From the IMG/VR virus record IMGVR_UViG_3300004154_000012: a stretch of 64,000 nt of DNA, one strand, 5' to 3'. The DNA comes from a virus. Of this stretch, positions 6,601-63,597 are shown piece by piece. How positions within the stretch are numbered: position 1 is the stretch's first letter; each line of letters starts with the position of its first letter. The notes below the pieces were generated by a model. That model saw only the letters and a program-made list of their open reading frames with translations. It ran no database searches and was not told the origin of the DNA. The position numbers and the translations under genes were made by a program.

Positions 6601-7000
6601 TCGGCTTGGCGGCCTTCAGCTTCGCCGTCAGCGCATCCTTCCCGGCGTGCGCGGTGATGAACTCGGCCAGCTTCCGCAAGCCGTCGCCGACCGGAGCGAC
6701 AGCGTCGGACGGTTTCCTGGCGGGGGCAGGGGCAGCGTCACCGAACAGGGTCGGCTGCACTGCGGTCGGCTTGGGAGAGTCGAAGAGAGAGGCCTGTGCC
6801 GGACCAACCGCCGACGCCTGCCGTTTGTGCCGGACGCCGCGGTGGGGCGCCACATAGGTCCCCCGCTTGGTCGTATAGCCGGTGACGTCGACAGGTGTGG
6901 CGAACAGGTCGGAGGAGGCGCCTCCGGGGATGGCAGCCTTGAGAAGGATAATCACTGGACAGTCCCGCGCGTGATGGCCATGCGCGGAGTGTGCTGTCAC
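620..7000 (-). CDS. giant polyvalent protein: N6-adenine DNA methyltransferase plus SNF2/DEAD-like helicase (DarB-like)
   Basis: 2126-aa ORF. SAM-binding EPSSATGAFL and catalytic IGNVPFG motifs. Helicase Walker A ADVGLGKTG, DExx box LLMDEGQAYKN, TATP, and motif VI QQRNGRGLRQGN. The start is ambiguous: GTG 7000 (inside the GTCGTGAC motif) or GTG 6955. Confidence 0.9.
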   Translation of the reverse strand: MTAHSAHGHHARDCPVIILLKAAIPGGASSDLFATPVDVTGYTTKRGTYVAPHRGVRHKRQASAVGPAQASLFDSPKPTAVQPTLFGDAAPAPARKPSDAVAPVGDGLRKLAEFITAHAGKDALTAKLKAAKPMERARAVQLMAQIGGLHIHQVEALLGLRAPADGGSDPMPAPEPAPDVPHEGEELENVDGLPVGARLYQDGRGLAAGKWRVKDAAGEPLGNFQATREAAVAEARQWHSNRLHSAKQAETSARHKADIRERLLAGQELSDADLKLLNLNPRSARFEWLSPAVQDVLGIPKHKVREAMGNALHQGTTDMGRKVWFANARKALANAAAWSKENAAPSASPTNEGASAEAKPLQWGVPTGTTKKARKAANARALAILKDKTDDQMTAEDRAVLAQYTGRGGVGDSLNEFYTDPAVAGAMWSMLTNLGFTGGEVLEPSSATGAFLHTAPAGARVTAVEMDPISSRIARILHTQAGHEVHTASLERFATQDGRQYDAVIGNVPFGLRGSVVKDDKPDLATAEAYFVDTALDKCRDGGLVALIVPTGLMDSQNGRAVRERLMRKGEFLGAHRLPNTAFSAAHTAVTSDIVIFRKRPQDVAGALSTLTQDQLQALGVWDADMLGGTYFSDGRGAGHVMGRLEEGWRAKAGIGQDITVSGSMEGVPEALAAWRPEDMGGTSPTVTQILKHLGDDTAAKRRAVNAALKNPYQVAKPGDVKVVNGERYILQGDPPRWHRTEEETPAAVEDAHRIAELLEDLADGRAKDPRFARAQLAELLDDYVATHGAPHRNKDLRQWLQAPILLREKGRSDEDHAYDVDRARRRVARLLGAVHDDGTYSDLVTGRTREAGGADLDTIATKIALESGGFTVDQLAAAWGHGDREAVLDHLFASPAFAVDPDGQTWTTMDAYLSGDLWQRYDAAKAALAHEGLSDAYRGKYQRQVAALEEAIAPQSLEDVEISLNSGFIKPTVLTAWFAARRATFMEKHPGASWAPGAVDVSYDDGLYRLRPDGFNHDAELVEKFLNRAGVRKDDRDKVARLQKEFRDWLLGSEWRDQVEEAYNRTYRGFVPKAYSDAPIAIPGLNPALDVNGYHFAGLRWALEAGKGIIAADVGLGKTGRGLMLAKLAKVTGQAKRPTFVVPKSVLANWVKEAEFWFPGSKVLVIGETYSRDKVGNLVSKSDNEETRRRKYHELQQNEYDFVFISQPAWNDLDVDPITKGQYANDDFWTKRGDKLGNAGDKRLNQIRTAHEQALAKREFGKREGTVYFNDLGIDMLLMDEGQAYKNLYAARNRFGESPKFLGGSGLSNRAQDTYFKSRSLRDANGGKGIYMLTATPTKNSPLEIYSMLSHIAPEAFERMGIKNSEDFLDRFCEFKEDTILTVDGQVEEALVTAGFKNLGELREVMRRFIDRKTAADVGLQLPARQDHQHLIDMTSEQEAVYQELRQAAADKASGDDTGDAHIFSIMDKMGKASLDLELLGPQHKGARSPKIEAVAANVAKLSTDGGQVVFCEAVAAHEKIATALVAAGIPRDQIGIINAKAASTSAARQRISDDFNSGKLKVVIGNKTMEEGVNLQKMTTDLHHCDLPWEPSTLQQRNGRGLRQGNTREAVRIHTYMAKGSFDGYRYQTILSKKDWQDLLWNGGDRVENLAREGAFSRQDMLIMLAAHPEEARAKYEADKAAAAERKTAEERGRAVDMFGRFQEMTASLKKLNASGAKGRAADRLAVKMALLREALRDSRYFNHKDLLDGGEPALIEPVTNHAWAKNRAFEMVGGSEAPVNWSSTPSKWVVTSVDLEDGKLHCRQWGRADGHTLDIPIGKMKSGVTPFGYDEDAEAAEIQVAAEAKAVSGVGTATTPAALKHLPKDMLERMAPTLQFQLKDAIRNYRDHGHSGPYGMIDAAGNPVAYASFDGRRMIGTHDLIVPTDEGRRLAIEGYVRAALKRKIKTRYAEGRRTTYGGAKAVGIEPAYPGFEYGADRGNPWASIMHNLFDPSARAEADQEVHRRALANIEDSPTFHDAVRSALPTLDLSRPANGALEDKAWPEETARALARKAKALGVLDHPIKEVVPLSSFNDDKVHPEVFRVAKRGNAYRTTDSGVSVRDFLLNAMRTDEAAAALHEELSK

Positions 7001-7003
7001 GAC
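6996..7003 (-). promoter_or_regulatory. GTCGTGAC junction motif copy
   Basis: Minus strand reads GTCGTGAC-AGCACACTCCGCGC-ATG, 14 nt to ATG 6981. That ATG opens a 9-codon mini-ORF, not the giant ORF. Confidence 0.6.
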
Positions 7004-7054
7004 GGATTCGAGGCGCCCCAGGCGAACAGGTCCTGCTGCGCCGTCTCCCGGCGC

Positions 7055-7735
7055 TCATCGGTCGCGATAGCGAGGCTGCGCGCGGTGGCGTGCTCCGTCA
7101 TGCGCTTGCACCATGGCCCGCAGGAACAGAATCGAGCCGGCCTTGAGAAGGCGCGGCGCATCCCGAGTGGTCAGGACCTGCCGCTTGAACTCCACAACTG
7201 GCATTTCGGCGACACTGCCGAAAAACCGTGGGTCGTCGTACATACCGGCGAACGCCGCCCTGGCCTCCTCCTCGGTGTTGAAGCCCAGCAGGGCCTTCTG
7301 CTCGTCCTTCACGATGAAGGCGGGCGGCGCCATCGTGGTCACGACGTAGACAGTCGGCGCGTCCGGGTTCGGCCCCACCAGACAGTCGAAATGGTCGCCG
7401 TCGATGCCGAGCGTGCCCCGGATATAGCCGTAATGGTGCTGCATGGAGATGGCCCACTCGTGGCCACCGCAGTCCACACCCCGTCGGATGGAGCCCCGTG
7501 GGTTCTCGATCGTGATGTCGAGGCCCTGGAACTGGAGACGGTGCTTGCGGTAGTTCCCAGCGTCGAGCTGCGCTGACGTCGGAGCGTGGTCGACGTCGCG
7601 CGATGCCGCGTGAACGCGGAGGGAGATGGCGCGATCCTCCGCCGCCATCGCGACAGGATCGCCGCCGGTGCGGCGTGCGAGGAGCCGCTGATAGCGGGCC
7701 TCGATGTCGGATTTGCAGAGGAGGAGGATCGTCAT
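7055..7735 (-). CDS. head-accessory protein with inorganic-pyrophosphatase-like core (tentative)
   Basis: 226 aa. GNYRKHRLQFQGLDITIENPRGS block, and GIDGDHFDCLVGP resembles the PPase DGDPxDxLV metal site. The C-terminus carries LLKAGSILFLRAMVQAHDGARHR, a module shared with neighbouring genes. Confidence 0.6.
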   Translation of the reverse strand: MTILLLCKSDIEARYQRLLARRTGGDPVAMAAEDRAISLRVHAASRDVDHAPTSAQLDAGNYRKHRLQFQGLDITIENPRGSIRRGVDCGGHEWAISMQHHYGYIRGTLGIDGDHFDCLVGPNPDAPTVYVVTTMAPPAFIVKDEQKALLGFNTEEEARAAFAGMYDDPRFFGSVAEMPVVEFKRQVLTTRDAPRLLKAGSILFLRAMVQAHDGARHRAQPRYRDR

Positions 7736-7749
7736 GCCGGCAGTGTGCC

Positions 7750-7757
7750 GTCACGAC
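7750..7757 (-). promoter_or_regulatory. GTCGTGAC junction motif copy
   Basis: GTCGTGAC-GGCACACTGCCGGC-ATG, exactly 14 nt to ATG 7735. No Shine-Dalgarno in the spacer. The motif starts 7 nt after the MuF-like stop codon. Confidence 0.65.
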
Positions 7758-8954: not shown

Positions 8955-8955
8955 G

Positions 8956-10716
8956 TCACCGCCCCTTACGCAGGAAGAAGATTATTCGGCCGCCTGCGGG
9001 TAGGGCTTTCTGGAGGCCTTCGCCGCGACCATCTTTTTCAGCCAGTCCGGGCGCTCGATCGACGTCCGGTTGGCCAGCGGGCGGCTGTCCATCGAGTCCA
9101 TCTTCTCCATCTGCTCCGGCGTCAGCTTGGTCATTGCCCATCTCCGAAATCAGCTTGGGCGGTTGGCCCTTGTCAACATTATTGTCCCTAAAGCTCCAAA
9201 CGTCCACCAGAGATTTAACAGCGTCGAAAGACGCTTCGTTCCCGGTGTTGCCCAATACCACCTCAGGCGGTACGAACCGGCCGGTAGGCCCAAGGAAGCG
9301 CTCGATTGCACGCTTGGCGGCTTCCTGGCGCGGCAGATGCATATAATGTGCCTCCACCCGATAGCCGGCGGCCTGGAAGCCCTTCACGTTCTTGACCGCC
9401 TTCTCCTTTGTTTTCATGGTGGCGTCGTGGACGATGTTCAAGCCAAGATCCATTGCTGCCAGCGTGATTTCATCGAACAGTTCACCAGACTCTTCGTGAA
9501 CCTGAAAAGCGTTCCAGCCCTGATACTCCGGCAGCATGCCTTTGATTTCATCGGCATCCAGAACGATGACCTTCTTCGGATCGTAGACCTTCCCTTTAAA
9601 CCAGCTCTTGCCAGAACCGCCACGGCCGCCGAGCACCGTGAATGTCGGTGACTGTCCGTCCCCTGGCGTGGCCGCCTCCACGGCTGCCTGGTTCAGGAAG
9701 TGCTCAAAGATTTTGCCATGCAACGCCCGCCGCTCCTCGGTCCACCGGCCGTTGACCTTGTGTTGCTTGATGGTCTCCGGCAGGGCGGCAATGCGCTTTT
9801 GCACATCGGCAATCTTCTCCGCAGTGTCCGCTGGGAAACCCTTTAGAATGTCATCGACGGTCGCGTTCGGGTCGTTGGTCTTCGTGAAGTAGTCCGCCGC
9901 GGTGAACTTGTCCGGCGGAATTGTGCCATCACCACCGCCATCACCGCCGCCGCCGGCGGACGGCTTGGCCTCTACATTGTTATCTGCCGCCTTGTCCTGC
10001 TTGTCGGGCGTGGCATCGCCGGCATCGCCGGCGGAGGGGCTAAGGAGGTGCTCGTGGCGGACTTGGTGTTCCCGCCCGGTATGATCCTGCAAGGTGACTC
10101 CGTCCGTACCGCTGGCAACGATCTTCCCTTCACCCTGGACATCACCGTGCCGGAACGGGACGACGTCGCCATGCTTCATTGGCGTCGGACCCTTGTCGTT
10201 GGCCGGCTCCTCTTGAACCGTGCGGGTCCAGCGCTTCGTCTGATGCCCCGCCTTGTCGGTGACGTCCTTCAGCGCCAAGCCTGCGCGCTGGGCGATCGGA
10301 GCCGCCTTCAGGAACAGGATGCGGGTATCAGGAATCATGGTCGCCTCATTAGTCATGCTCTTTTGGAGGCGGTCGAGCCCGCCCAACAACGGATCGTCCC
10401 GCCCCGGTACCGTCGGCACCGGGGCGTCGGTAGTGTCCGGCAGCGCGCCAGTGACGAAGCGGCGGCACCCCTTGTCATCCTCCAGCAGGGCGCCGTCAGC
10501 CCCCTGGTCGATAATCCGCATCCGTTGAGTCATGCGCGTCTTATGACCGAGGTATGCGTCCCAGTGCAACTGATGGGATTTTCCTCGGTCGCAACGGGCC
10601 GTCATGCCGTCCTTGCCATGCGCAACCACCTTCACGGCCATCGGCCCATGCTGTGGATGCCGCACATAGACCTCATCGCCGGGCTCGACGTCCGGCCGCT
10701 GCGGCCGCTTGCTCAT
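8956..10716 (-). CDS. head-associated protein with C-terminal zeta-toxin-like P-loop kinase domain
   Basis: 586 aa. Walker A LGGRGGSGKSWF followed by VLDADEIK ... IVHDATMKTKEKA, the layout typical of zeta/AAA_33 kinases. The N-terminal half has two GD-x-V ... G-x-DG-x-T SH3-like repeats and an ILFLKA module. The gene lies between portal and MuF. Confidence 0.75.
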   Translation of the reverse strand: MSKRPQRPDVEPGDEVYVRHPQHGPMAVKVVAHGKDGMTARCDRGKSHQLHWDAYLGHKTRMTQRMRIIDQGADGALLEDDKGCRRFVTGALPDTTDAPVPTVPGRDDPLLGGLDRLQKSMTNEATMIPDTRILFLKAAPIAQRAGLALKDVTDKAGHQTKRWTRTVQEEPANDKGPTPMKHGDVVPFRHGDVQGEGKIVASGTDGVTLQDHTGREHQVRHEHLLSPSAGDAGDATPDKQDKAADNNVEAKPSAGGGGDGGGDGTIPPDKFTAADYFTKTNDPNATVDDILKGFPADTAEKIADVQKRIAALPETIKQHKVNGRWTEERRALHGKIFEHFLNQAAVEAATPGDGQSPTFTVLGGRGGSGKSWFKGKVYDPKKVIVLDADEIKGMLPEYQGWNAFQVHEESGELFDEITLAAMDLGLNIVHDATMKTKEKAVKNVKGFQAAGYRVEAHYMHLPRQEAAKRAIERFLGPTGRFVPPEVVLGNTGNEASFDAVKSLVDVWSFRDNNVDKGQPPKLISEMGNDQADAGADGEDGLDGQPPAGQPDVDRAPGLAEKDGRGEGLQKALPAGGRIIFFLRKGR

Positions 10717-12479
10717 TCGCCCACCGTGTAGATCACGGTCGACGCCGCCAACGCCTTGCCGAAATCGCCGCCGCCGTTCCCGCCCCCGAACTCGCCACCA
10801 GCCGGATCGGCACCGACGTTCCTATCCGGCTCGTCCTGCCCATCGACATCGCCCTGGTCGGGCTCATCCTGGCCATCGCCTCCAGCATCGTCGGGCGCCG
10901 CGCCAAAATCCACGCCAGCGCCGCCGCCAAAGTCTCGGCCCTGCTGCGCCGGCTGCTGCATCTGCATCCATGGCCCGATCAGCGAGGGGTTCAGCGGGGC
11001 CGCTCCGAGCTTATCGTCCGGATGCGCCTCATAGCCCATCTCCGCCCGCAGCTCGTCCACGGTCAGCACCAGCTTTTTGTTCTCCCAATCCCGCGCTTCG
11101 TCCTTCACGTCGAGGCCCAACCAGCGGAAGCAATACTTGTCGCTGAACTCCGAAACGATGAAGTCCGAGAACACTGACTCGAAATAGGACAGCAGAGGCC
11201 TCAGCCCTTTGTCCTTGCTATCGGCCAGTTTTTCAGCCGTATCGGACCCTGAAAGACTTGATTTTTGCGCGCTGAATGATTCGAAATTGATTTCATCCGG
11301 CGACATGCCGTAGATCGCGCAGATGATCGACGTCAGGAACGTCATCCATTTCGCGAAGTACATTTCATTGTACTCGATGCCGAAACGCTCAAAAGACGCC
11401 TTACTCTCTTGATCCTTCGACACCATGACAGGCAAGGCCCACGCGTTGTTGACGCCCTTCACCATGGCGTTCCAGTAACGCTTGAAGGCGTTCAGGTCCT
11501 CCTGCCCATAGTCGCCGGTCAGATGGAGGAGGCCCTTCGGAATCGCGTTTTGGTCGAACCCGGCGATGTTGTAGTTCATGGCGTTCAGGAACCCGGTGAC
11601 GGTGCGGATCAGCAGCTCCGTCTCGCCCAGGCCGTAGCCGGCCAGTCGCACATCGGACCGCGGATTCCGGGGCTCGTAGATGAGCTGGTCGCGGGTGTAG
11701 GCGGTGGCGATGCGACCTTGCACCACCTGGAGGGCGTAGATTTCGTCGTCGCCCTGGTAGTCGTCCTCCGCGCACAGGCGGATGGTCGCGCCGTCGACCG
11801 CATAGAAGCCGTCCATGCCCAGCGTGCGGTCGCGCTTGAACTCCGTCTCGATCGGCGCGCTGTCCATGGTCAGGCTGTCGCGGACCATCTTCGCCATGAA
11901 CTGGCTGAAATTGTCGCGCCGCAGCAGCTTGCGCTTGCGCGGGTTGAACTCCCATCCGCAGTTGGCGAAGAACTTCGCCAAGAGTTGCGTGCTCTCCTTC
12001 TCATCCGGCGTCAGCTTGTGCGTCTTGTCGACGTGCCGGATCTCGAAACCAGGGCCGCCGTCCTCGCTGATTTGGGTGAAGCGGCTCACCTGTCGGATGC
12101 GGGTCAACACGACGGCGTTCAGCACCGGGGTCTGGTCGACCATGGCCCGCAAACCGTCGAAGCCGAGCGGCGACGGCTTCTCCCAATAGTCGCCGTAGGC
12201 CTGGATTTGCAGGTTGTCGAGTTGTACCGACTGCATGCCGCGCGCCGGAGGCGGTCGCGTCCGACCGGGAAACTCGACGGCTTGCCCGCGCGCTTTCGCC
12301 AGCAGGCCCTGTTCCTCGAAAGAGGCGGCGATGAAGTCGATCACCGGCCGCATATGGTCAGCGGGGATCAGGTCGGACGCGGTTGGCCGATGCGCCTGTT
12401 GCAGCTCGGCATTGGCGTCATAGCGCTCGGCAGCCGGAGCGGCGGAATCGAACGCAATCTGGCGGGCATCATCGGTCAT
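10713..12479 (-). CDS. portal protein (assigned by position and size)
   Basis: 588-aa ORF directly downstream of terL and upstream of the MuF-like gene. Acidic Gly/Asp-rich C-terminal tail. The family cannot be verified without a search. Confidence 0.7.
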   Translation of the reverse strand: MTDDARQIAFDSAAPAAERYDANAELQQAHRPTASDLIPADHMRPVIDFIAASFEEQGLLAKARGQAVEFPGRTRPPPARGMQSVQLDNLQIQAYGDYWEKPSPLGFDGLRAMVDQTPVLNAVVLTRIRQVSRFTQISEDGGPGFEIRHVDKTHKLTPDEKESTQLLAKFFANCGWEFNPRKRKLLRRDNFSQFMAKMVRDSLTMDSAPIETEFKRDRTLGMDGFYAVDGATIRLCAEDDYQGDDEIYALQVVQGRIATAYTRDQLIYEPRNPRSDVRLAGYGLGETELLIRTVTGFLNAMNYNIAGFDQNAIPKGLLHLTGDYGQEDLNAFKRYWNAMVKGVNNAWALPVMVSKDQESKASFERFGIEYNEMYFAKWMTFLTSIICAIYGMSPDEINFESFSAQKSSLSGSDTAEKLADSKDKGLRPLLSYFESVFSDFIVSEFSDKYCFRWLGLDVKDEARDWENKKLVLTVDELRAEMGYEAHPDDKLGAAPLNPSLIGPWMQMQQPAQQGRDFGGGAGVDFGAAPDDAGGDGQDEPDQGDVDGQDEPDRNVGADPAGGEFGGGNGGGDFGKALAASTVIYTVGE

Positions 12480-12493
12480 GATGACAGGGTAGC

Positions 12494-12501
12494 GTCACGA
12501 C
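12494..12501 (-). promoter_or_regulatory. GTCGTGAC junction motif copy
   Basis: GTCGTGAC-GCTACCCTGTCATC-ATG, exactly 14 nt to portal ATG 12479. No SD in the spacer. Confidence 0.65.
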
Positions 12502-12524: not shown

Positions 12525-12553
12525 GGTAGGTTGCTACCTACCTACTTAGCTAC
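12525..12553 (+). promoter_or_regulatory. dispersed GCTACCTACCTAGCTA-type element, copy a
   Basis: GGTAGGTTGCTACCTACCTACTTAGCTAC between the terL stop (12550) and the portal start. Contains GGTAGG-N6-CCTACC symmetry. Confidence 0.6.
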
Positions 12554-14595
12554 TCGCGTGGAATGAACACGACGCACGCCGGGTCCTTCGGCGCCACCGA
12601 GAAATGACGCTCGGTGCACTGCCCATCAACGAAGGCGGTGCATCGCCCGCACACCCCGGCCGGCAGATCGTCAATCAGCTTGACGACGTTGGCCGGCAGG
12701 CCCGGCATGGCCTCCACCAGTTTCTGAGCCACGGCCGCCTGTGGCCTCACGTCGGGCATGATGAAGGTGTTCGTGCCGTGTGCGCGCGCCCAGGCGACAT
12801 CGCACAGCATATTCGCGTATGAAAAGTGCGGGTCGATCCCCACCTTCTTGACCGACCGGCGGAAGGCGTTGGTCTCGTCATCCTTCTCCGCCACCAGCGC
12901 CGTCTTGGTGAAGTGGAGGAATGCGCGCGGCAGGACCGGCACCGTCTGCCGCACCCCCTTCTCCCGCACCTCCTGCACAAGCCCCTGACGGTCGGGGAAG
13001 AGGCAGATGGTCTGCGTGAGGCGGGCCATGGCGACCTGCATGCACTTGTACTGGTCGAGCCGGACGGTATAGCGGTCGCGCTCGGCCTCGGCGGTGCGGC
13101 GCTCGGACACATCGAGCCGTGGTGCATCCCCCCACTGGATCATGCCCTCCTTCAGCGACCCGTAAGAATCGCAGATGAAGACCTTGCCCTTGTGGCGGTT
13201 GGCGAAGCGCTTGGCGTCGTTGTAGTTCGGGTTGATTTCGACCACGCACGCCGCGACGCCATAGGTCTCCATCAGCTCCGAGCAGCGGGCGAAGGGATTT
13301 TCACTGTAGACCTCCTCAACATGGATCACCGCCTGCCGACCGTCGGGCAGGCGCTCTTTGATGATCACGCAGTTGAAATTGCCCATCTGGTCGATGCCCA
13401 TGAACGTGCCTTGCGCCCGCGTCTTCCAGACAAGCCCGGCGGCAATGCCGGTCTTCTCGCACGCGGCCAAATGCTCCAGCGTCACCGGGACTTGGCTGGG
13501 ATCGAGGTATGGCTTGCCCAGCTTTCGATTGTAAAAATTCTTCAGGTCCGTGGCAGAGTTGTAGGCATACAGGATTTCGCCGGCGGAAATTGTCGGGGAG
13601 AGGAACTGCGGGAAATGGATGCTGCGGATGCGGAGCGGCCGATCCTTCTTCGGAATCGCGTAGTCGATCGGCTGGTCTGCGTCTGGATTGTCCGCGATCC
13701 AGGCCCCCCGCTGCGGATCATCGATCCAGTGACCAGCCTCGCACACATACCGATCAGCGTGTCGGATCGGGTCCCATTTGATGCAGGCTGGGAAATAATC
13801 GTCCAGAGGTTTGCGCCGGCCGCACTCCGGGCATTCGGTGTGGAACCGGTATTGCGACCCTCGCTTGTACCAGTGGTTAATATCGGAATCTGGCCAGTTG
13901 GCCGTCGAGCCCATCAGCACGAAGCGGATCGGGGAAGCCGACAGACGTTCCAGCGTCTTCTCCATCTGTTCCAGGCTCATTTCCTGGACTTCATCGAAGG
14001 AGAGGACATCCATCGGGATCGACTCCGTGGTCGCCCGGCCGGAGGTCCACGAGAAGATGAACAACGCCTCACCAACGCGCCGACGGGTCACGTTGCCTTC
14101 GCCCGCCTTGCGGCCGCTGCCATCCTGCGCCTCATGCGTCATCAAGGCATGGACGGAGGGGACCGACCGGACGATCGGCATGAAGCGCTCGGTCGACTTC
14201 ACCCCGGCGAGGTTCATGTCGGGCAAGAACATGCCCACGGTGGCCGGGCCGAACCGGAGGCCCAGGTAGATGGTGGCCAACATCTCCATGACGGTAAATC
14301 CGACCTGCGCGCACTTCTGGAGGACCAGCACGAAACGATAGGCCTCGTCCTCCGTGCTGGGGACCTGGTCATAAATCCAGGCCATGGCCGGGCGGTCATC
14401 CAGCTTGAAGGCCTTCCCGTCGACCTTCATCCCCTCGTCCCCCAGCTTCTCGACCCACTGCCGGAACGTCATGCCGGGCGGGATCGGGCTCTTGAGGGCA
14501 CCGGTGGTCAGGTTCAGTTCGCGCTCCAGAGCCGCGATCATGCGGTTTTGCGCCGCCCGTGATGTCTCCAGAGGGTTCTGCCGCCCGACCGCCAT
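12550..14595 (-). CDS. terL: terminase large subunit (lambda GpA-like)
   Basis: 681 aa. ATPase signature LQKCAQVGFT (GpA-type K-x-A-Q/R-V-G), Walker B VLSFDEVQE, Cys-rich C-terminal tail. Sits between the small terminase and portal. Confidence 0.85.
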   Translation of the reverse strand: MAVGRQNPLETSRAAQNRMIAALERELNLTTGALKSPIPPGMTFRQWVEKLGDEGMKVDGKAFKLDDRPAMAWIYDQVPSTEDEAYRFVLVLQKCAQVGFTVMEMLATIYLGLRFGPATVGMFLPDMNLAGVKSTERFMPIVRSVPSVHALMTHEAQDGSGRKAGEGNVTRRRVGEALFIFSWTSGRATTESIPMDVLSFDEVQEMSLEQMEKTLERLSASPIRFVLMGSTANWPDSDINHWYKRGSQYRFHTECPECGRRKPLDDYFPACIKWDPIRHADRYVCEAGHWIDDPQRGAWIADNPDADQPIDYAIPKKDRPLRIRSIHFPQFLSPTISAGEILYAYNSATDLKNFYNRKLGKPYLDPSQVPVTLEHLAACEKTGIAAGLVWKTRAQGTFMGIDQMGNFNCVIIKERLPDGRQAVIHVEEVYSENPFARCSELMETYGVAACVVEINPNYNDAKRFANRHKGKVFICDSYGSLKEGMIQWGDAPRLDVSERRTAEAERDRYTVRLDQYKCMQVAMARLTQTICLFPDRQGLVQEVREKGVRQTVPVLPRAFLHFTKTALVAEKDDETNAFRRSVKKVGIDPHFSYANMLCDVAWARAHGTNTFIMPDVRPQAAVAQKLVEAMPGLPANVVKLIDDLPAGVCGRCTAFVDGQCTERHFSVAPKDPACVVFIPRE

Positions 14596-14599: not shown

Positions 14600-15208
14600 T
14601 TACATTCCGAATTGCGCGTTGACCTGCCGGAACTTCATCAAAATGCGCTCGACCAGGGCCGGGTCCTCCTCACGCAGCACCTGGAAAATCGCTTCATGGA
14701 ATCGCTCCACATGCACCACCGCCAGCATGGCCTCTTGGAGCTGGACCACGGTCTGTGCCGAGCGCCGCAGGTGTTCCGACGCCGCCAGCAGCAGCTTCAC
14801 GTTCCGCAGCTTCCCTTCTTCAGTCCGCGAGTGAGCCATGAGCTCCTCGGCGATAGCGATGCACTGCCGCAGCTTGTCGACCACCGACACCACCCCGCCG
14901 GTCTCGACCAGTGTGGAGACATCCGGCATCGGCGGCAGGACCTCGACCGCCTCCCGCGCCGCATCGGCGGCGGGGTCCGCCGTCCGCTGCGCCCGCGCCT
15001 CGGCCTCCCGCTGCACCACCTTGCCGAGGTGGGCGCCAGCGCGGCCGCTCTTCTCCAGAGCGTCCAGCCAGCGATAGAGGGTGCTCTGCCCGATCCCTCG
15101 GGATTTGAACTCGCCGACCAAGCCAGCCCGGTCGAATTGATCGCCGTATTGCTCGATCAGCTTCAGCGCTCGCGCTTCGAACTCTGCCCGATCTTCCTTC
15201 CGCGCCAT
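14600..15208 (-). CDS. terS: terminase small subunit (putative, HTH)
   Basis: Start refined to ATG 15208 (MARKEDRAEF...), which overlaps the TGA of the upstream gene (TGATG). HTH-like GIGQSTLYRWLDALEKS. Directly precedes terL. Confidence 0.6.
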   Translation of the reverse strand: MARKEDRAEFEARALKLIEQYGDQFDRAGLVGEFKSRGIGQSTLYRWLDALEKSGRAGAHLGKVVQREAEARAQRTADPAADAAREAVEVLPPMPDVSTLVETGGVVSVVDKLRQCIAIAEELMAHSRTEEGKLRNVKLLLAASEHLRRSAQTVVQLQEAMLAVVHVERFHEAIFQVLREEDPALVERILMKFRQVNAQFGM

Positions 15209-15765: not shown

Positions 15766-16030
15766 CAGGCCCCCTTGCCTTGCGCGTCAACTTGTCCGCC
15801 GCCGTCTCCTCGACCATTTGGGCAAGGATTTCGTAGGGATTGGCCGCCGTGCGCATGGGATTCGGCGCACAGCGGTATCCGGGCACGCCACAGGCGCACA
15901 GCGCGGCGACGCGCCCTTTGGCCTCGACGCCGCAGAGCGAGCATCGGAAGGTGCCATCCCGCTCCAGCACACGCCCGATCCCGCAGTGCCGACAACAGTG
16001 CGGGGTGAGTGTCCAGCCGCTGTCCCTCAC
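15734..16030 (-). CDS. small Cys-rich (zinc-ribbon-like) protein
   Basis: 98 aa with CCRHC...CSLC and CACG...C pairs. Overlaps both neighbours. Start uncertain. Confidence 0.4.
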   Translation of the reverse strand: MRDSGWTLTPHCCRHCGIGRVLERDGTFRCSLCGVEAKGRVAALCACGVPGYRCAPNPMRTAANPYEILAQMVEETAADKLTRKARGPVAVDGGLFGG

Positions 16031-16581
16031 AGGCCCAACTCCAACTGGACCGCAGCGGCAGCCGCCACCCGTGGGTGGCGGACCAGCGGCGCCGCTGGCC
16101 GACTGAACGCCAGAGATCCCGATCCGGTCGCCGCCCTGCCCAGCACCAGCATGCTCTCCGCCGCATTGGTGACGCGGCGCACGACATGGAGGCGCAGTAT
16201 GCCGTCACGGACGATCAGGACCTTGTCGTCATGCAGAATGGCGGTGAGCCGCGGCACGCCGCCTTTTGCGTTCCGCCCCCGCAGTGCCTCGCGCTCACGG
16301 TTGTAGCAGGAGACGCACAGGCGCCCGTTGATGAGACGCGAGGCCTGCCTCTGGCAGCGAGGGCACAGACACTGGAGTGATTCTACGGTGGCCGCAGTCG
16401 CCGGTAGCGGCTTGCCAGCATGGGCTGCCCCGATGGGGCAGGTCCGACAGTGCCAACGACCTTCCCACGGCTCCGGACGCTTGCGCTCCGCCGCTTGCCA
16501 AGACGCAGCGCAGCTCACCTTGGTGAGGCTCAGTGCGCGCCGGTCGCAGCGGAACAGCTCCAGTTCCATGGTTTGCCCCAT
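16027..16581 (-). CDS. Cys-rich protein with multiple CxxC pairs, function unknown
   Basis: Start refined to ATG 16581 (MGQTMELELF), with GGAG 9 nt upstream. Contains CRTC, CPRC and CVSC pairs. First gene downstream of the 16593-16689 regulatory region. Confidence 0.5.
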   Translation of the reverse strand: MGQTMELELFRCDRRALSLTKVSCAASWQAAERKRPEPWEGRWHCRTCPIGAAHAGKPLPATAATVESLQCLCPRCQRQASRLINGRLCVSCYNREREALRGRNAKGGVPRLTAILHDDKVLIVRDGILRLHVVRRVTNAAESMLVLGRAATGSGSLAFSRPAAPLVRHPRVAAAAAVQLELGL

Positions 16582-16592
16582 CGGTGTAACTC

Positions 16593-16689
16593 CGTAGGGC
16601 ATAGGAATATCACTCGGACATAGGGTGACGCAATGCGCCACTCTATTTTTGTCAAGCTGTTATGAATGATTGCATAGGAAAATCCTATG
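16593..16689. promoter_or_regulatory. cluster of C(G/A)TAGGA half-sites
   Basis: CGTAGGG 16593, CATAGGAAT 16600, CATAGGGTG 16619, and the perfect palindrome CATAGGA-AAA-TCCTATG at 16673-16689, which overlaps the holin stop. Minus-strand TTGACA at 16651-16656. Confidence 0.45.
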
Positions 16690-18185: not shown

Positions 18186-18225
18186 AGCAGCCTCGTGAGG
18201 GAGATGGGTACCCCACGAGTGTCGC

Positions 18226-18233
18226 GTCACGAC
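18226..18233 (-). promoter_or_regulatory. GTCGTGAC junction motif copy
   Basis: Starts 3 nt after the upstream TAG. 40 nt to endolysin ATG 18185, with a small hairpin (CTCGTGGGG...CCCTCACGAG) in between. Confidence 0.6.
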
Positions 18234-18824: not shown

Positions 18825-18861
18825 GGTGGCCTCCAAGGAAGAGTTACCCCTCCATGAGGCC

Positions 18862-18869
18862 GTCACGAC
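18862..18869 (-). promoter_or_regulatory. GTCGTGAC junction motif copy
   Basis: 37 nt upstream of ATG 18824. Lies about 75 nt downstream (in the transcription sense) of element copy b. Confidence 0.6.
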
Positions 18870-18944: not shown

Positions 18945-18988
18945 ACCTATATACCTATATACCTAGATAGCTACTTACCTAGCTATCT
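18945..18988 (+). promoter_or_regulatory. dispersed element copy b, and candidate recombinase core site
   Basis: Three tandem 8-mers (ACCTATAT, ACCTATAT, ACCTAGAT; 18945-18968), then the inverted repeat AGATAGCTA-cttacc-TAGCTATCT (18965-18988), which contains GCTACTTACCTAGCTA. Abuts the recombinase stop codon. Confidence 0.55.
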
Positions 18989-21128: not shown

Positions 21129-21598
21129 GCATCACCTCGCCTCGCCTTATTAAGCATCCGCGCGGCCTCACGCATAATAGGGTCTGCCGCGCTCAGACGT
21201 CGGCGCGCGGCATGAAGAGAATCGCGGGAAGACTGTGGGCCGCGACTTCCCATTGTCACCCGGTTGATCTCATTCAGGGCGTCAAGCAGGTCGCGCATGA
21301 CTTCCGCCTCTCGGGAGGTCTCGCCATTGAACCGCAGTCCGCGAGCCTTCATGTCGTTCACACACGCGGCCAATACGGCTTCCGGGTCCGGCTCCTTGGC
21401 GCATACGGCGAGAAGCACTTCACGGTCAACCGGGCCACGGACGATCACGCGACACATGTCCACGACGTGACCGGCAGTCAGGTGGTCATCCACGGATTCC
21501 CTCCTTTGGCTGGGGTGCATAGGCAGCCTAGCCATCACGCTCTCCGGGGTGTCGTCGCCCTGGGTCGCAGCGGGCGTTTCGGGGGTGGGGTTGGTCAT
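21125..21598 (-). CDS. hypothetical protein
   Basis: 157-aa ORF. Its ATG 21598 lies exactly 14 nt after an ATCGTGAC motif variant. Confidence 0.5.
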   Translation of the reverse strand: MTNPTPETPAATQGDDTPESVMARLPMHPSQRRESVDDHLTAGHVVDMCRVIVRGPVDREVLLAVCAKEPDPEAVLAACVNDMKARGLRFNGETSREAEVMRDLLDALNEINRVTMGSRGPQSSRDSLHAARRRLSAADPIMREAARMLNKARRGDA

Positions 21599-21612
21599 GG
21601 CTGGTCCTTTTC

Positions 21613-21620
21613 GTCACGAT
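21613..21620 (-). promoter_or_regulatory. junction motif variant ATCGTGAC
   Basis: ATCGTGAC-GAAAAGGACCAGCC-ATG, 14 nt to ATG 21598. Sits in a 105-nt gap that also holds a degenerate CCTACCTAG element (21674-21688). Confidence 0.5.
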
Positions 21621-26427: not shown

Positions 26428-26429
26428 GG

Positions 26430-28813: not shown

Positions 28814-28995
28814 TCTTCAGGCGCCCGGACGGCACAGCGACGGCGAGCCTTCTCCGGCTCATCCGCAACCGGCTTCTCCGCCGCCGGGAAGCGGTAATGG
28901 CGCGCGTTCAGGTCTCGCAGCTTCTGCATGCGTTCGATGCGCTTCCGCTCCAGCTCCGCCGCCAACCCGGCATGCTTGTTGGGCTGCCACGTCAC
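28810..28995 (-). CDS. hypothetical small basic protein
   Basis: GTG 28995 overlaps the TGA of the HTH gene (CTCGTGACG). VTWQPNKHAGLAAELERKRIE... Low support. Confidence 0.3.
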   Translation of the reverse strand: MTWQPNKHAGLAAELERKRIERMQKLRDLNARHYRFPAAEKPVADEPEKARRRCAVRAPEE

Positions 28996-29201
28996 GAGCG
29001 GGCCTCCTGCTGCGCGGCCAGCCATGTATCCAGGTCGGACGCGCGATAGCAGATGCGGCGCTCGCCGATGCGGACGAAGGGCGGGCCACCAGCTTCGGAT
29101 GCGCGAAGGCGCTGGAGGGTCCGACGGCTGATGCGGAGCGATGCGGCGGCCTCGTCCTGCGACAGCAGTTTCAAAGGGGACGCGATTGTCTCGGTGGTCA
29201 T
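28992..29201 (-). CDS. AlpA/excisionase-family HTH DNA-binding protein
   Basis: 69 aa. LLSQDEAAASLRISRRTLQRLRA...FVRIGERRICYRASDLDTWL is the typical AlpA/Xis-type winged HTH. Confidence 0.65.
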   Translation of the reverse strand: MTTETIASPLKLLSQDEAAASLRISRRTLQRLRASEAGGPPFVRIGERRICYRASDLDTWLAAQQEARS

Positions 29202-29241
29202 GGCGTGTCATGTCGTGGCCGATTATGACCCACAGGCTTCC

Positions 29242-29249
29242 GTCACGAC
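29242..29249 (-). promoter_or_regulatory. GTCGTGAC junction motif copy
   Basis: 40 nt upstream of ATG 29201, and 40 nt downstream of the 34-bp palindrome (29289-29322). Confidence 0.6.
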
Positions 29250-29613: not shown

Positions 29614-29686
29614 GATGATGGCCCCTCCTTGGGGCTGCGATGGTGCGTGGGTGCAATGCCTCGATCTTGAGGACCATCAGCTTCGC

Positions 29687-29694
29687 GTCACGAC
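29687..29694 (-). promoter_or_regulatory. GTCGTGAC junction motif copy
   Basis: Begins 6 nt after the terminator feature 29701-29740 (12 nt after the first U of its U-tract). 73 nt upstream of ATG 29613. Confidence 0.6.
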
Positions 29695-29700: not shown

Positions 29701-29740
29701 CCAGAAAAGCATAGGGCCGCCCGGTTGGGGCGGCCCTATG
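29701..29740 (-). terminator. intrinsic terminator
   Basis: Minus strand: CATAGGGCCGCCC-CAACC-GGGCGGCCCTATG (13-bp GC-rich stem) followed by CTTTTCTGG. Confidence 0.65.
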
Positions 29741-29872
29741 GCACGGTCGAGACCATTTCCCGCAAGCGCGCATCTACCCCTGAGAGGGCTCGATGGTCTC
29801 TTTGTTCGCCGCGGCGCCGGCACGCCACCCAGGATCTCCTCTCAGGCCCTGACCGCTCCCATGGGAGCCAGA

Positions 29873-30460
29873 TCAGAAGGTCGTCACGACCGGCCCAGCG
29901 CCATCATCAGCGTTGGCCCGGCGCAGAAGGATGTCCCCGTGGCAGGGGGAGCCCAAGCGACACCAGCAGCCCAAATTGCGCCCGCGGAGCTGGGGCAGGG
30001 CGTCGAGGACACGTCGGGCATGATCGGGAGCCGGCACGAAGGCCAGCACCACCCCCGTCTCCGGGCCGCACGCGAAGGTCTCGCCGCCCGGGTTGCTCAG
30101 GTATCGGTCATAGTAGGCGACTGCGGCCGCGACGTGCTCCGGGTTCTTGGGGTCGATCGGCCGGAACGGATTCCCCAATAGCTTGTTCGTGCGGTCGACC
30201 TTGACGGTTCCGGGCGGCAGCCGGGCACCGCGCCGACGGGAAAGTTGGAGGCGTTGGGGCTGGCCGGTCTCCAGCCCCCCCATGACAAGGGTGCGGCGGC
30301 ATCTCGGACAGGTCACAGCGTCGGGCCTGAGTGTCCATGTCGCACGGACCAGATCAACGGCGCGCGGTTTGACGAAGCACGCCGCTGAAACGCCTCCAGC
30401 ACCGTTGACAGCGGCGGCCATATGGACGATCCGCGTTGGCACCGTGGGGTGGTCATGCAT
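29873..30460 (-). CDS. DUF4326-like protein
   Basis: Start refined to ATG 30460. LLGNPFRP, then ...LRGRNLGCWCRLGSPCHGDILL at the C-terminus, matches the DUF4326 pattern as I recall it. Confidence 0.55.
   Translation of the reverse strand: MHDHPTVPTRIVHMAAAVNGAGGVSAACFVKPRAVDLVRATWTLRPDAVTCPRCRRTLVMGGLETGQPQRLQLSRRRGARLPPGTVKVDRTNKLLGNPFRPIDPKNPEHVAAAVAYYDRYLSNPGGETFACGPETGVVLAFVPAPDHARRVLDALPQLRGRNLGCWCRLGSPCHGDILLRRANADDGAGPVVTTF
29883..29890 (-). promoter_or_regulatory. GTCGTGAC motif copy in the last codons of the DUF4326-like gene
   Basis: Encodes ...PVVTTF*, so it may be coding coincidence or a functional copy ahead of the 260-nt gap. Confidence 0.35.
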
Positions 30461-43522: not shown

Positions 43523-43523
43523 C

Positions 43524-44443: not shown

Positions 44444-44457
44444 GCTCCACTCCGCTG

Positions 44458-44538: not shown

Positions 44539-44576
44539 TCTGTCCTTCCGGTCGCAAGCTCCTCATGCGATGCGAC

Positions 44577-44603
44577 ACCTACCTACCTAGCTATTTACCT
44601 CTA
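44577..44603 (+). promoter_or_regulatory. dispersed element, copy e (parA upstream)
   Basis: ACCTACCTACCTAGCTATTTACCTCTA, just upstream of a CATAAT hexamer (44608) and about 47 nt before the parA GTG. Confidence 0.6.
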
Positions 44604-44650
44604 TGGTCATAATGAGGTATCGTGTGGGTTCAACTGGAGGAGGTCTGATA

Positions 44651-46174: not shown

Positions 46175-46621
46175 TTACGGTGGACTACCGATAGGGACAG
46201 ACGGCACCTTCATGCCCTGACGCTGCATTTCAGAGCGGAGTTCGAGCAGTTCGAATCCCAGCTTGGTCACTTTCTCCTCTGCTGTCTTGCGGGCGGCGCG
46301 TTCCTCGTCCAACTCCTCACGCAGTTTGGCGGTGTCGTCCCGCAAGGTATTGACGACCTCCATGAGCTGTTTGAACGCAGCTTCGCGATCAACGCTGTCC
46401 TGGCGCTTGGCTTCCGTGTCGGCCTGGCGCGCCGCGACCAGGCCGTCGGTCTTTACCTTCTGGCGCTGGTAGAGGGAATTTAGCGCCTGTGTCACGACCA
46501 CGCTGACAAAGGCCCAGACTGCGGTGCCATCCAAGAGCTTCGAAAAATCCACAGCACCGATCCCAGCTTGATCTGCGCCCTTCTGGCGTGAGGTCAGAGT
46601 GCCGTCACGACCGCTTGACAC
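46175..46621 (-). CDS. membrane-anchored coiled-coil protein; start uncertain
   Basis: AVWAFVSVVVTQAL hydrophobic helix, then a heptad-like Glu/Lys/Arg-rich C-terminus. The true start may be GTG 46552. Confidence 0.4.
   Translation of the reverse strand: MSSGRDGTLTSRQKGADQAGIGAVDFSKLLDGTAVWAFVSVVVTQALNSLYQRQKVKTDGLVAARQADTEAKRQDSVDREAAFKQLMEVVNTLRDDTAKLREELDEERAARKTAEEKVTKLGFELLELRSEMQRQGMKVPSVPIGSPP
46604..46611 (-). promoter_or_regulatory. GTCGTGAC junction motif copy
   Basis: GTCGTGACGGCACTCTG, the extended consensus. Lies downstream of the 16-bp hairpin and upstream of the likely start of the 46175 gene. Confidence 0.55.
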
Positions 46622-53764: not shown

Positions 53765-53807
53765 TATGATCGACTCCAAGGGCAAGCACCTTTGAGCCGA
53801 TCATGGC

Positions 53808-53815
53808 GTCACGAC
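53808..53815 (-). promoter_or_regulatory. GTCGTGAC junction motif copy
   Basis: 20 nt after the upstream TGA, and 43 nt before ATG 53764. Confidence 0.6.
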
Positions 53816-56848: not shown

Positions 56849-57458
56849 TGCTCATCCCTACCGGCAGGTGCTGACCGTCCACGGTGATTGCGGTGGCGGA
56901 CACGGCGACGGCGTCCCCGGTGATCGTGGCCGAGGTGTTTTCGACGCGCGCGACGCGCCGGTCCGTGCCCAGGGTGCTCGCGACGAATGCCGCCGCGAGC
57001 TGGTTGTTCACCTCGTCCGCTCCGCGACCGATCAGCGCACGTACCGAGCAGCCATACCGTGCATGGAAAAGCAGCTCCCCCGGTTCCGTCGCCAGCGCGT
57101 GGCGCAGCGCCTGGAGCAGGTTGTCCGTGCCGGCCACGAGCGCCATGTCGCCGCTAGCGGTCGCCTCAATTTGACCCCGCGCCAGAGCGATATCGCGACC
57201 GAACACACTGTCGGCGGCCGCCACCCCCGTCGGTGTGGGAGCGCTGGCAGGCAGCATGATCGGATCGCCGGACAGCAAGACAGTGGGACCGGCGGACGCG
57301 GGATCGTCGGTGATGTAGGGCGGAAGAAGCTTGTTGATCTGCGCGAGGTCCGGCCATCGGCTGGCGTCGCCCAACTCGCGCGCGGCGATGGCCTGGAGGC
57401 TGTCGCCAACCCGCGTCTCGGCGCGCCGGTAGCCGGCCAGAGACTTCGTCCAGCTCAT
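56832..57458 (-). CDS. LysM plus GPW/gp25-like baseplate wedge protein
   Basis: N-terminal RVGDSLQAIAARELGDASRWPDLAQINKL (LysM-like). C-terminal LLQALRHALATEPGELLFHARYGCSVRALIG (gp25-like). Confidence 0.6.
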   Translation of the reverse strand: MSWTKSLAGYRRAETRVGDSLQAIAARELGDASRWPDLAQINKLLPPYITDDPASAGPTVLLSGDPIMLPASAPTPTGVAAADSVFGRDIALARGQIEATASGDMALVAGTDNLLQALRHALATEPGELLFHARYGCSVRALIGRGADEVNNQLAAAFVASTLGTDRRVARVENTSATITGDAVAVSATAITVDGQHLPVGMSNALSN

Positions 57459-58585
57459 GACACGGTAACTCCTGCCGGCAGGGCCGCCAGTGCCTGTGTG
57501 GCCACCGCCGGGATCAGGGTGAGGGGATCGCGCCGCAGCGTGTCCAGCGCGTCACGCCCGCCAGCGGACACCGTCAGCCGCGAGGACACTGGAGGGAACA
57601 TGCTGTTGAACGGGTTCTTCTGCTGTTCGGCGAAAGTCGACCAGGGTCGACCGCCGCCGGTGGATGAGCAGGAGCTGGCGCCGAACAGATCATCGTACGA
57701 GCGGAAGTAGCGGCCAGTGTCGAATCCGTGATTGATCGTGCATGAGATGTCGTTCATGGCGCTGGCGGCCCGCATGAGGACGCTCTTGATCGAAAAGGAG
57801 GTCTGCGCCCGAGCCAGAGCGGCGAACCCGTTTCGGGTCGCTTCCGACACCAACTGGACCGTCTGGAGGATCGGAGCCGTCAGTTCGTCAACCAGCCCGC
57901 CACCCGCGTCGATCGTGTCCAGCACAAGCTGCACGCACCCTTGGACGAACGCACAGACATCCGTGACAATGTCGACAATGTCCGAGTACAGTTGCTTGAT
58001 GTCGGAGATGATCCCGCCGATTTCATCAAATAGATTTTCGAGACCAAGCTTGGCCGCAAGCCAGCGCAACGGATTGAAGAGCGCGCCGGTAATCGCATCG
58101 TTGATGCTTCCCGGCTTTGCCGCATCATCCAGAACCACCAATTGGATTTGGTACCTCATCAACAGCGGTGAAGATTTCGACCGCCGCAAGCTGAACGATT
58201 TCGGAGCCACCAGCGCGGTGATTTTGTCGAGCGTGTCGGCAAAGAACAGCTTTACATTGTCCGGGTCCTGCCCGCGAGCGGCAGCTACCGCGCGCCGTTC
58301 GTGCCAGTCCGTGAACACGGTGGCGCGCAGTTTTTCGAATTGCGCAGCCCCATCGCCGCCCACGCCACCGCGCCAGCCAGTATGGCCGGCGAGCGTGATG
58401 GACTGCACCCCACGGTCAAAAGAATCCACCCAGGCACCGCCCAGCGTCTGCTGAACGGCCAACCTGGAGGGTTCCTGCCGGGTCAGCTCTTCGGGGCGGA
58501 TCACGAAGTTCCATGTCTTCGTGCCGCCACCGCCGCCTTCCAGGTAGAAGCCGATCTTGCGGTGTTTTTGGGATGGAGGCGCCAT
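57455..58585 (-). CDS. virion structural protein
   Basis: 376-aa ORF. ATG 58585 lies exactly 14 nt after the GTCGTGAT motif variant (GGAGG in the spacer). Confidence 0.5.
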   Translation of the reverse strand: MAPPSQKHRKIGFYLEGGGGGTKTWNFVIRPEELTRQEPSRLAVQQTLGGAWVDSFDRGVQSITLAGHTGWRGGVGGDGAAQFEKLRATVFTDWHERRAVAAARGQDPDNVKLFFADTLDKITALVAPKSFSLRRSKSSPLLMRYQIQLVVLDDAAKPGSINDAITGALFNPLRWLAAKLGLENLFDEIGGIISDIKQLYSDIVDIVTDVCAFVQGCVQLVLDTIDAGGGLVDELTAPILQTVQLVSEATRNGFAALARAQTSFSIKSVLMRAASAMNDISCTINHGFDTGRYFRSYDDLFGASSCSSTGGGRPWSTFAEQQKNPFNSMFPPVSSRLTVSAGGRDALDTLRRDPLTLIPAVATQALAALPAGVTVS

Positions 58586-58599
58586 ACCTCCATCCTGCC

Positions 58600-58607
58600 A
58601 TCACGAC
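58600..58607 (-). promoter_or_regulatory. junction motif variant GTCGTGAT
   Basis: GTCGTGAT-GGCAGGATGGAGGT-ATG, 14 nt to ATG 58585. Begins 2 nt after the spike gene TGA. Confidence 0.5.
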
Positions 58608-63548: not shown

Positions 63549-63589
63549 GGCTTTGGCCCATGCGGTGAGGCTGCATGGGCCAGCATGCC

Positions 63590-63597
63590 GTCACGAC
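63590..63597 (-). promoter_or_regulatory. GTCGTGAC junction motif copy
   Basis: 41 nt upstream of tape-measure GTG 63548. A 9-bp hairpin (GGCCCATGC...GCATGGGCC) fills the spacer. Confidence 0.6.

Follow-up and report, generated by a model that had tools for sequence, protein, structure and literature searches.

We analysed a 64,000-nt stretch of viral DNA (IMG/VR virus record IMGVR_UViG_3300004154_000012, hereafter the window), in which the octamer GTCGTGAC recurs at gene junctions of the minus strand, the carrier of nearly all window genes. This octamer is probably the box at the upstream end of a phage-specific promoter that has no -35 element, and transcripts from it would begin at +15 or +16 from the octamer. 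In the mechanism that we propose, the octamer would occupy approximately positions -22 to -15, a degenerate -10 hexamer would lie two bases downstream of it, and transcription would start 7-8 nt past a conserved T at +8. Where an ATG coincides with the start site the mRNA would be leaderless, and where the ATG lies farther away a short leader, often with a Shine-Dalgarno-like sequence, would be made. The host sigma70 holoenzyme would supply the recognition of the -10 hexamer, and a phage-encoded protein would read the octamer in place of the -35 contact. Sequence statistics establish the element itself, its spacing rules, how it is conserved, and which genes go with it.

A search of the window gave 13 exact matches to the plus-strand form, GTCACGAC, and none in the opposite orientation, reproducing at the same coordinates all the copies reported by the first-pass annotation, an earlier reading of this DNA from its letters. 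In 100 dinucleotide-preserving shuffles of the window the octamer was found on both strands together 2.93 times on average and 7 times at most; compared with the 13 observed copies, this control indicates that the enrichment and the strand bias are real. A third-order Markov model of the window gives an expectation of 2.05 copies for the minus strand. Other claims of the first-pass annotation were borne out as well. An ATG lies 14 nt from the octamer at 6981, 7735, 12479, 21598, and 58585, and the distance to the start codon is 37-43 nt at 18824, 18185, 29201, 53764, and 63548. By hand count, G occupies +1 in 12 of the 13 junction copies and T occupies +8 likewise in 12 of 13. Two copies (7338 and 46491) are internal to genes and one (29883) falls in the last codons of a gene, the terminator ahead of the copy at 29694 is real (a 13-bp stem, 29740-29710, and then a T tract), and no octamer stands ahead of the plus-strand plasmid and lysogeny genes.

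The comparison was extended to relatives gathered by two routes. The portal protein led to 57 IMG/VR contigs and 8 GTDB contigs, the latter including metagenome-assembled genomes of Azospirillaceae and Rhodospirillales and scaffold19 of Pararobbsia silviterrae (90 kb); a putative zinc protein with eight conserved cysteines, discussed below, led to 63 IMG/VR contigs, giving about 130 related contigs in all. The complete annotated relatives were Pseudomonas phage Dolphis and E. coli phage ECML-606-1. In 2.07 Mb of relatives, 213 copies of GTCGTGAC lie on the gene strand and 29 on the opposite one; in Dolphis the proportion was 10 to 1, and in ECML-606-1, searched as GTCGTGA[CT], it was also 10 to 1. 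The octamer is present at homologous junctions of the relatives, and T tracts precede many of its copies there. It is unchanged across contigs from Alpha-, Beta-, and Gammaproteobacteria whose GC content spans 41-73%; the variants are confined to positions 1-2 (GG, CT, AT, TA) and 8 (C/T), and the core CGTGA is fixed. Because the same octamer is kept over this range of base composition and hosts, it appears to be read by a conserved, dedicated protein. The lineage consists of myoviruses and phage-plasmids of about 90 kb, widespread and unstudied, with members cultured on Pseudomonas, E. coli, Enterobacter, Bordetella, Aeromonas, Yersinia, and Morganella.

To describe the surroundings of the octamer, an information profile was built from 106 unique copies, numbering from the first base past the octamer. 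A at +4 and T at +8 were each present in 90 of the 106, followed in frequency by G at +1 (74), C at +2 and at +3 (60 each), G at +9 (53), and A at +15 (51). The full element is therefore GTCGTGAC-GCC-A-N3-T-G, in which a hexamer cAnnnT starts two bases past the octamer. We place A+4 and T+8 as the putative -11A and -7T of a degenerate sigma70-type -10 hexamer; the second and sixth positions of the -10 (A-11 and T-7) are the bases flipped out by sigma. The T at +8 had been recognized by the first-pass annotation, which overlooked the conserved A at +4; it is the two together that make the -10-like hexamer. In the 40 nt upstream of the octamer no base was conserved in the 106 copies, hence no -35 element. 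Other types of promoter found no support. The TG of the octamer lies at -18/-17, and positions -15/-14 are C and G, so this is not an extended -10 promoter. The sigma54 pattern (GG and GC 10 nt apart, at -24/-12) is not in the consensus of the 106 copies. A phage RNA polymerase was neither annotated in the complete Dolphis genome nor detected in PHROGs and Pfam scans of the large open reading frames (ORFs) of the window, which is a weak test, and a 949-aa ORF of ECML-606-1 had no NCBIfam match.

The position of the start codons was studied in 103 unique copies, an earlier set of 95 giving the same peak of offsets. In 28 copies an ATG has a spacer of 14 and in 16 a spacer of 15 (44 of 103), which places it 6 or 7 nt past T+8, compared with 0-4 at the neighbouring offsets. 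At these two spacers GTG was absent and TTG occurred once, against 44 ATGs. Nearly all of these ATGs (43 of 44) open at least 73 codons, the background being that 32% of ATGs open at least 100. A Shine-Dalgarno-like sequence was seen in only 1 of the 44 copies of the N14/15 class, as compared with 23 of 50 in the leadered class. Deposited annotations place starts at the same distance: in Dolphis the coding sequences of gp8 (protease) at N15 and of gp117 and gp1 (terminase, across the record ends) at N14, and in ECML-606-1 the gene 26406-27248 at N14. Leaderless mRNAs, which are widespread in Actinobacteria and include that of lambda cI from PRM, have as their hallmarks a start site on the A of AUG, a missing Shine-Dalgarno sequence, and a requirement for AUG. 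The lack of Shine-Dalgarno sequences and the exclusive use of ATG would follow if the mRNA is leaderless where the ATG coincides with the start site, and we think it likely, as part of the promoter reading as a whole, that the 14-nt class consists of leaderless mRNAs with a predicted start site at the A of AUG. In the other copies the start codon is 16-109 nt away, mostly 28-43 nt. Of the two quantised spacings that had been put forward, the one of 14 nt thus stands, while the one of about 40 nt is a loose set of short leaders and not a second quantum, because leadered spacers in the relatives span 16-109 nt. The -10 signature is present in 59 of 64 copies of the N14/15 class and in 73 of 95 of the leadered class, which is also enriched for A at +15/+16. 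Stem-loops in the leaders were considered and rejected: when 40 nt from +14 were folded, neither class was more stable than expected (mean z 0.4-0.8), and the hairpins seen by eye begin inside the -10 region.

An exact ATG distance in about 40% of copies, with no Shine-Dalgarno sequence in those spacers, and the location of copies between genes of possible long operons could also be explained by a motif acting in the RNA, either as a processing site or as the site of a translation activator replacing the Shine-Dalgarno sequence at a fixed 14 nt. Both had been listed among the candidate roles by the first-pass annotation, and we consider them very unlikely. In more than half of the copies the start codon is 16-109 nt away; Shine-Dalgarno-like sequences are present in about half of these, and they carry the same A+4/T+8, which matches DNA recognition by sigma and would be unnecessary for an RNA site. 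A strong terminator precedes one copy, so that a new transcript must start after it, and no significant RNA structure was predicted from +14 on. The -10 signature and the orientation are kept whatever the distance to the start codon; this is illustrated by the portal junction, which in many relatives has the octamer either at N14/15 or ahead of a leader of about 30 nt with a GGAGG Shine-Dalgarno sequence, so that the element does not depend on the start distance. Since the element is the same regardless of that distance, it would be a promoter acting at the DNA level and not a translation or processing signal.

A polar DNA motif outside transcription initiation, for example a repressor operator, a recombination or packaging signal, or a Chi- or KOPS-like orientation signal, would account for the strong strand bias and for the palindromic outer bases of the octamer (GTC..GAC), as for a dimeric DNA-binding protein. 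We regard it as highly improbable, considering that the copies are intergenic and at a fixed distance from the -10-like hexamer and the ATG codons, whereas orientation motifs of the Chi or KOPS type are spread throughout coding sequence. In addition, the study of the headful pac site of Mecenats66, a relative, mentions neither "promoter" nor "motif".

The promoter reading also agrees with the kind of genes involved. According to PHROGs, Pfam, and NCBIfam scans, the window belongs to a myovirus-type phage that also carries plasmid functions. A DarB-like methyltransferase/helicase gene (620-6955) is followed by an Ulx-like anti-restriction gene (285-623), in the order of P1 darB-ulx; next come the portal (10713-12479), large terminase (12550-14595), and endolysin (17322-18185) genes, DNA methyltransferases and replication-initiator-like genes at 23-40 kb, a RepA-like gene at 43583-44578(-), ParA at 44603-45355(+), and baseplate, tail-fibre, and tape-measure genes at 47-63.5 kb. 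The element stands at the head of the tape-measure, baseplate, virion protein, endolysin, portal, virion-associated protein, and DarB-like genes and of the gene upstream of the endolysin, and three clustered sites at 29.2-29.9 kb precede small genes, one of them encoding an HTH_17 protein, and an operon running into methyltransferases. Between 46.5 and 30 kb in the window, no site was found ahead of the genes for replication and DNA modification. In Dolphis the genes preceded by it are the terminase, the protease/capsid module, baseplate J, the lysis cassette, gp98-99, and gp116-117, and in ECML-606-1 the portal, head, tail, and giant DarB-like genes. The operon types are thus packaging, head, tail, lysis, anti-restriction, and some DNA modification, and because sites are missing at replication, plasmid, and lysogeny genes, the element is assigned, from its placement in the sequence, to a late or middle promoter class.

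This distribution bears on whether a phage protein is required at all. The promoter might be read by the host holoenzyme alone, the octamer being a spacer or extended -10-type element for sigma region 3 or the beta-prime zipper, and the timing coming, for example, from repressor release or replication. The -10-like A/T signature fits sigma70, the proteobacterial hosts have conserved sigma70 and core RNA polymerase, and no activator has been identified. Nevertheless, an extended -10 needs its TG at -15/-14, not at -18/-17 as in the octamer, the octamer is missing ahead of plus-strand plasmid and lysogeny genes and ahead of the replication genes at 46.5-30 kb, and an 8-bp element constant over 41-73% GC and confined to the late-gene junctions of one lineage looks like a private recognition code. 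We therefore take recognition by the host alone to be unlikely. All the comparative evidence supports the role that the first-pass annotation had listed first, a phage-specific promoter or transcription-start element, which a phage regulator would probably read.

The elements of the window and the two candidate genes for their reader are collected in Table 1.

Table 1. Promoter-like elements, octamer copies, terminator, and candidate reader genes in the window.
Feature	Coordinates	Strand	Remarks
Promoter-like element GTCGTGAC-AG-CACACT-N6-ATG	6981..7003	-	ATG 6981 opens mini-ORF 6952-6981
Exact octamer without -10-like A/T	7338..7345	-	Within coding sequence 7055-7735; probably not functional
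Promoter-like element GTCGTGAC-GG-CACACT-N6-ATG	7735..7757	-	Predicted leaderless mRNA for a 226-aa virion-associated protein, 7055-7735 (PHROG matches); no Shine-Dalgarno sequence in the 14-nt spacer
Promoter-like element before portal gene	12479..12501	-	Octamer 12494-12501; TACCCT 12486-12491; predicted start at A of ATG 12479, leaderless
Cys8 zinc protein, candidate reader (speculative)	16027..16602	-	191 aa; eight conserved cysteines; motif CVSCYNRERE..GRNAKGG
Promoter-like element GTCGTGAC-GC-GACACT	18211..18233	-	GAGG leader to ATG 18185, endolysin 17322-18185
Weaker element: exact octamer, T at +8, C at +4	18847..18869	-	37 nt before ATG 18824 of a 195-aa protein; GGAGG Shine-Dalgarno sequence
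Doubtful one-mismatch copy ATCGTGAC	21598..21620	-	A at +4, no T at +8; ATG 21598 at N14; AAGGA Shine-Dalgarno-like run
HTH_17 (MerR/excisionase-type) protein, second candidate (speculative)	28992..29201	-	69 aa; first gene after the 29249 element
Promoter-like element GTCGTGAC-GG-AAGCCT	29227..29249	-	40 nt before ATG 29201 of HTH_17 gene
Promoter-like element GTCGTGAC-GC-GAAGCT	29672..29694	-	GGAGG leader to ATG 29613 of a 76-aa protein, 29383-29613
Intrinsic-terminator-like hairpin and T tract	29710..29740	-	13-bp stem with 10 G-C pairs; its end lies some 15 nt upstream of the octamer at 29694
Weaker element: exact octamer, T at +8, C at +4	29868..29890	-	In last codons of DUF4326 gene 29873-30571
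Exact octamer without -10-like A/T	46491..46498	-	Within an open frame; probably not functional
Promoter-like element GTCGTGAC-GG-CACTCT	46589..46611	-	Downstream gene uncertain; possible GTG 46552, ORF 46175-46552 (no family match in scans)
Promoter-like element GTCGTGAC-GC-CATGAT	53793..53815	-	GGAG leader to ATG 53764, virion structural protein 53282-53764
One-mismatch element GTCGTGAT-GG-CAGGAT-N6-ATG	58585..58607	-	Before a 376-aa baseplate-module protein, 57455-58585
Promoter-like element GTCGTGAC-GG-CATGCT	63575..63597	-	Predicted start near 63575; leader of about 27 nt to GTG 63548, tape-measure-like gene

Some of these sites deserve comment. The two one-mismatch copies of the first-pass annotation fared differently: the one at 58600 is kept as an element, its octamer GTCGTGAT being the common variant in ECML-606-1, while the one at 21613 is doubtful because it has no T at +8 and its ATG has an AAGGA of its own. 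The ATG at 6981 does lie 14 nt from the octamer, as had been noted, but it opens a mini-ORF of 9 codons and not the DarB-like gene of 2,100 aa, with which it is out of frame. The TGA of the mini-ORF overlaps an in-frame GTG at 6955 (GTGA), which is the likely start of the DarB-like gene 620-6955. A comparable mini-ORF (ATG-TTT-TGA) is located at N14 near 34469 in ECML-606-1, ahead of the gene 33563-34447; both may be leaderless and pass ribosomes to the downstream gene. The tape-measure-like gene is homologous to Dolphis gp21, and the overlap of 645 nt between its ORF and the next tail gene was discarded as an artefact of taking the first possible start codon. A (ACCTATAT) x 4.6 repeat at 18945-18981 lies between an integrase-like gene, 18988-19608(-), and the promoter-like element at 18869.

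A key aspect is which protein would read the octamer. Our first candidate, put forward tentatively, is the zinc protein, which is the only non-structural protein common to the window, Dolphis, and ECML-606-1; one DNA methyltransferase is common to the window and ECML-606-1 only. The zinc protein has more than 100 homologues, all unannotated, and no sequence relative in Pfam, NCBIfam, or the PDB. Its fold was predicted with confidence by AlphaFold 2 (pLDDT 86); no Foldseek match in the PDB had an E value below 0.5, and the sole BFVD hit was probably Dolphis's truncated homologue. The fold may be one that solved structures do not yet include. On the contigs anchored by this protein, 69 full elements were found, almost all on the strand of its gene. 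In the window, Dolphis, and ECML-606-1 (where it lies at 79153-79698) that gene is preceded by a regulatory gap, rich in AT or in iterons, and no copy of GTCGTGAC stands directly upstream of it. Covariation between variants of the box and the zinc protein was also looked for; no distinct specificity classes emerged, the core CGTGA being fixed. It is possible, according to our model, that the zinc protein founds a new class of phage transcription factor that would bind GTCGTGAC from -22 to -15, possibly with the HTH_17 protein, with sigma70 starting at the AUG; we hold this no more firmly than the candidate itself.

The HTH_17 protein is the second candidate, and a doubtful one. Its gene is located 40 nt downstream of the octamer in the window and 44-52 nt downstream of it in two distant relatives (L070 and L079), and one homologue of the zinc protein (P0090) is fused to an HTH_17 domain. 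A second HTH_17-like ORF, 42563-42805 (+), is found in the plasmid/lysogeny region and has no GTCGTGAC upstream.

Several observations in the neighbourhood of the zinc protein are reported here. A 98-aa Cys-rich protein (15734-16030) overlaps its stop codon, and a 241-aa protein with an HExxH-like motif (14600-15325) lies between these two and the terminase gene; as both accompany the zinc protein in distant relatives (L072 and L074), a conserved module of three genes is suggested. Dolphis gp82, annotated at 66941-67213, is apparently the 3' half of a homologue of the zinc protein that extends over 66641-67213, and its deposited start is probably wrong, because both the homology and the open frame extend about 300 nt farther upstream. 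Directly upstream of the zinc-protein gene, repeat arrays flank a very AT-rich core, with GGTAACC at 65875-66640 in Dolphis and GGAACGG at 79700-80205 in ECML-606-1; this layout looks like an origin or another large regulatory region.

Several points weigh against a promoter read by a phage protein. No sigma factor and no protein like MotA/AsiA, Mor/C, Ogr, or Lpa was found with PHROGs, Pfam, and NCBIfam among the approximately 60 proteins of the window, which represents about two-thirds of the genome. The position -12 of the profile is mostly C and not the usual T of sigma70, and in 4 of the 13 exact copies in the window (7338, 46491, 29883, and 18862) the -10 signature is incomplete or missing. 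The start site is predicted from geometry only. Leaderless mRNAs are poorly translated in E. coli, so that for the enterobacterial members it would be unusual to have such mRNAs for portal or terminase. Regarding the zinc protein, in two distant relatives its gene sits within an operon headed by the motif, and its co-occurrence with the motif is not independent evidence because all contigs come from one broad lineage.

Other repeated sequences were seen in the window. About four 22-bp direct repeats (AGGTTCGCGAAATACCGACGGT) at 43433-43523, just past the 3' end of the RepA-like gene and near ParA, are probably plasmid iterons or an origin; the plasmid collection gave no nucleotide match to the window. 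The window also shows an enrichment of about 6-fold for the palindrome TTCGCGAA. Within the replication-initiator-like gene 35732-36607(-), a pentanucleotide is repeated perfectly at 36169-36200, (CCTTC) x 6.4, and could be a slippage-prone tract.

Should the promoter be confirmed, it would give the first transcription map for this lineage of myoviruses and phage-plasmids of about 90 kb, with exact start sites predicted and gene starts corrected, such as those of the DarB-like gene of the window and of Dolphis gp82. Late genes of proteobacterial phages could then be expressed routinely from leaderless mRNAs. Finding the reader of the octamer would add a new activator or a mechanism of sigma remodelling, and, if the zinc protein were that reader, a compact module of promoter and activator working from Azospirillum to E. 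coli hosts and driving late genes by way of leaderless mRNAs; a short orthogonal promoter across Proteobacteria is a possible use. Having a member that infects E. coli, ECML-606-1, makes the predictions directly testable.

As to earlier descriptions, the first-pass annotation had taken the element for an undescribed one. This holds for the sequence itself, since text searches of the literature for the octamer returned only primers and unrelated sequences, publications on Dolphis, Mecenats66, and PHB04 contain no discussion of promoters, and no account of the motif or of transcription in the lineage was found in the searchable literature; its architecture, on the contrary, is already known from the late promoters of phage P1, discussed last. 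By comparison with other promoters of leaderless mRNAs, the element shares the ATG at the predicted start, the absence of Shine-Dalgarno sequences, and the use of AUG only, and differs in that here the arrangement is systematic in one promoter class of proteobacterial phages and serves late genes (portal, terminase, protease).

In phage Mu (Mor/C) and phage P2 (Ogr), a factor of the phage takes the place of the -35 contact, and the -10 is read by host sigma70. In the T4 middle promoters the -35 contact is replaced by AsiA/MotA and sigma70 likewise reads the -10 (PMC7403470). Our proposal of a phage factor in place of the -35 contact is alike; the difference is in the location of the boxes, which are at about -30 for MotA, about -30 to -55 for Mu C/Mor, and about -55 for Ogr, whereas here the box abuts the -10. 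Thermus phage P23-45's middle and late promoters are also independent of the -35 and rely on sequence just upstream of the -10 (PMC7403470), as in the present element. They differ from it in having a TG-type extended -10 that is read by host sigma, with gp39 disabling recognition of the -35, whereas here the TG is three bases farther upstream and the element is a specific 8-mer.

The activity of the P1 late promoters depends on Lpa together with the host cofactor SspA. Lpa is their described activator (PMC8198154). Ten of these promoters are annotated in GenBank AF234172, with a 9-bp "-22 box" AAGTGACTT, a 4-nt spacer, TAnnnT, and no -35; they head the portal, lysis, tail/tape-measure, packaging, and dar operons, and their mRNAs have leaders. 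Common to both systems are the lack of a -35, a short and nearly palindromic box just upstream of the -10, a GTGAC core present in AAGTGACTT and in GTCGTGAC, and the kinds of operon headed, which in the window are portal, endolysin, tape measure, baseplate, and DarB-like. The window phage is also, as P1, a candidate plasmid-type prophage, with DarB-Ulx, RepA, and ParA. The differences are in the distance between box and hexamer (2 nt here, 4 nt in P1, the core aligned by GTGAC being 4 bp closer to the -10 here), in the flanks of the box, in the -10, which is a degenerate cAnnnT here and TAnnnT in P1, and in the AUG, which coincides with the predicted start in about 40% of copies here and is not placed at +1 by the P1 late promoters. 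Close kinship with P1 was considered and discarded: tblastn of all P1 ORFs against the window matched only DarB, and Lpa is absent. The Lpa family (PF25716) is restricted to enterobacterial P1-like elements, and neither tblastn nor a hidden Markov model of 12 Lpa homologues matched anything in the window, Dolphis, or ECML-606-1, only the Lpa of P1 being recovered. By analogy, then, the element described here would work like a P1 late promoter without being a member of that family.

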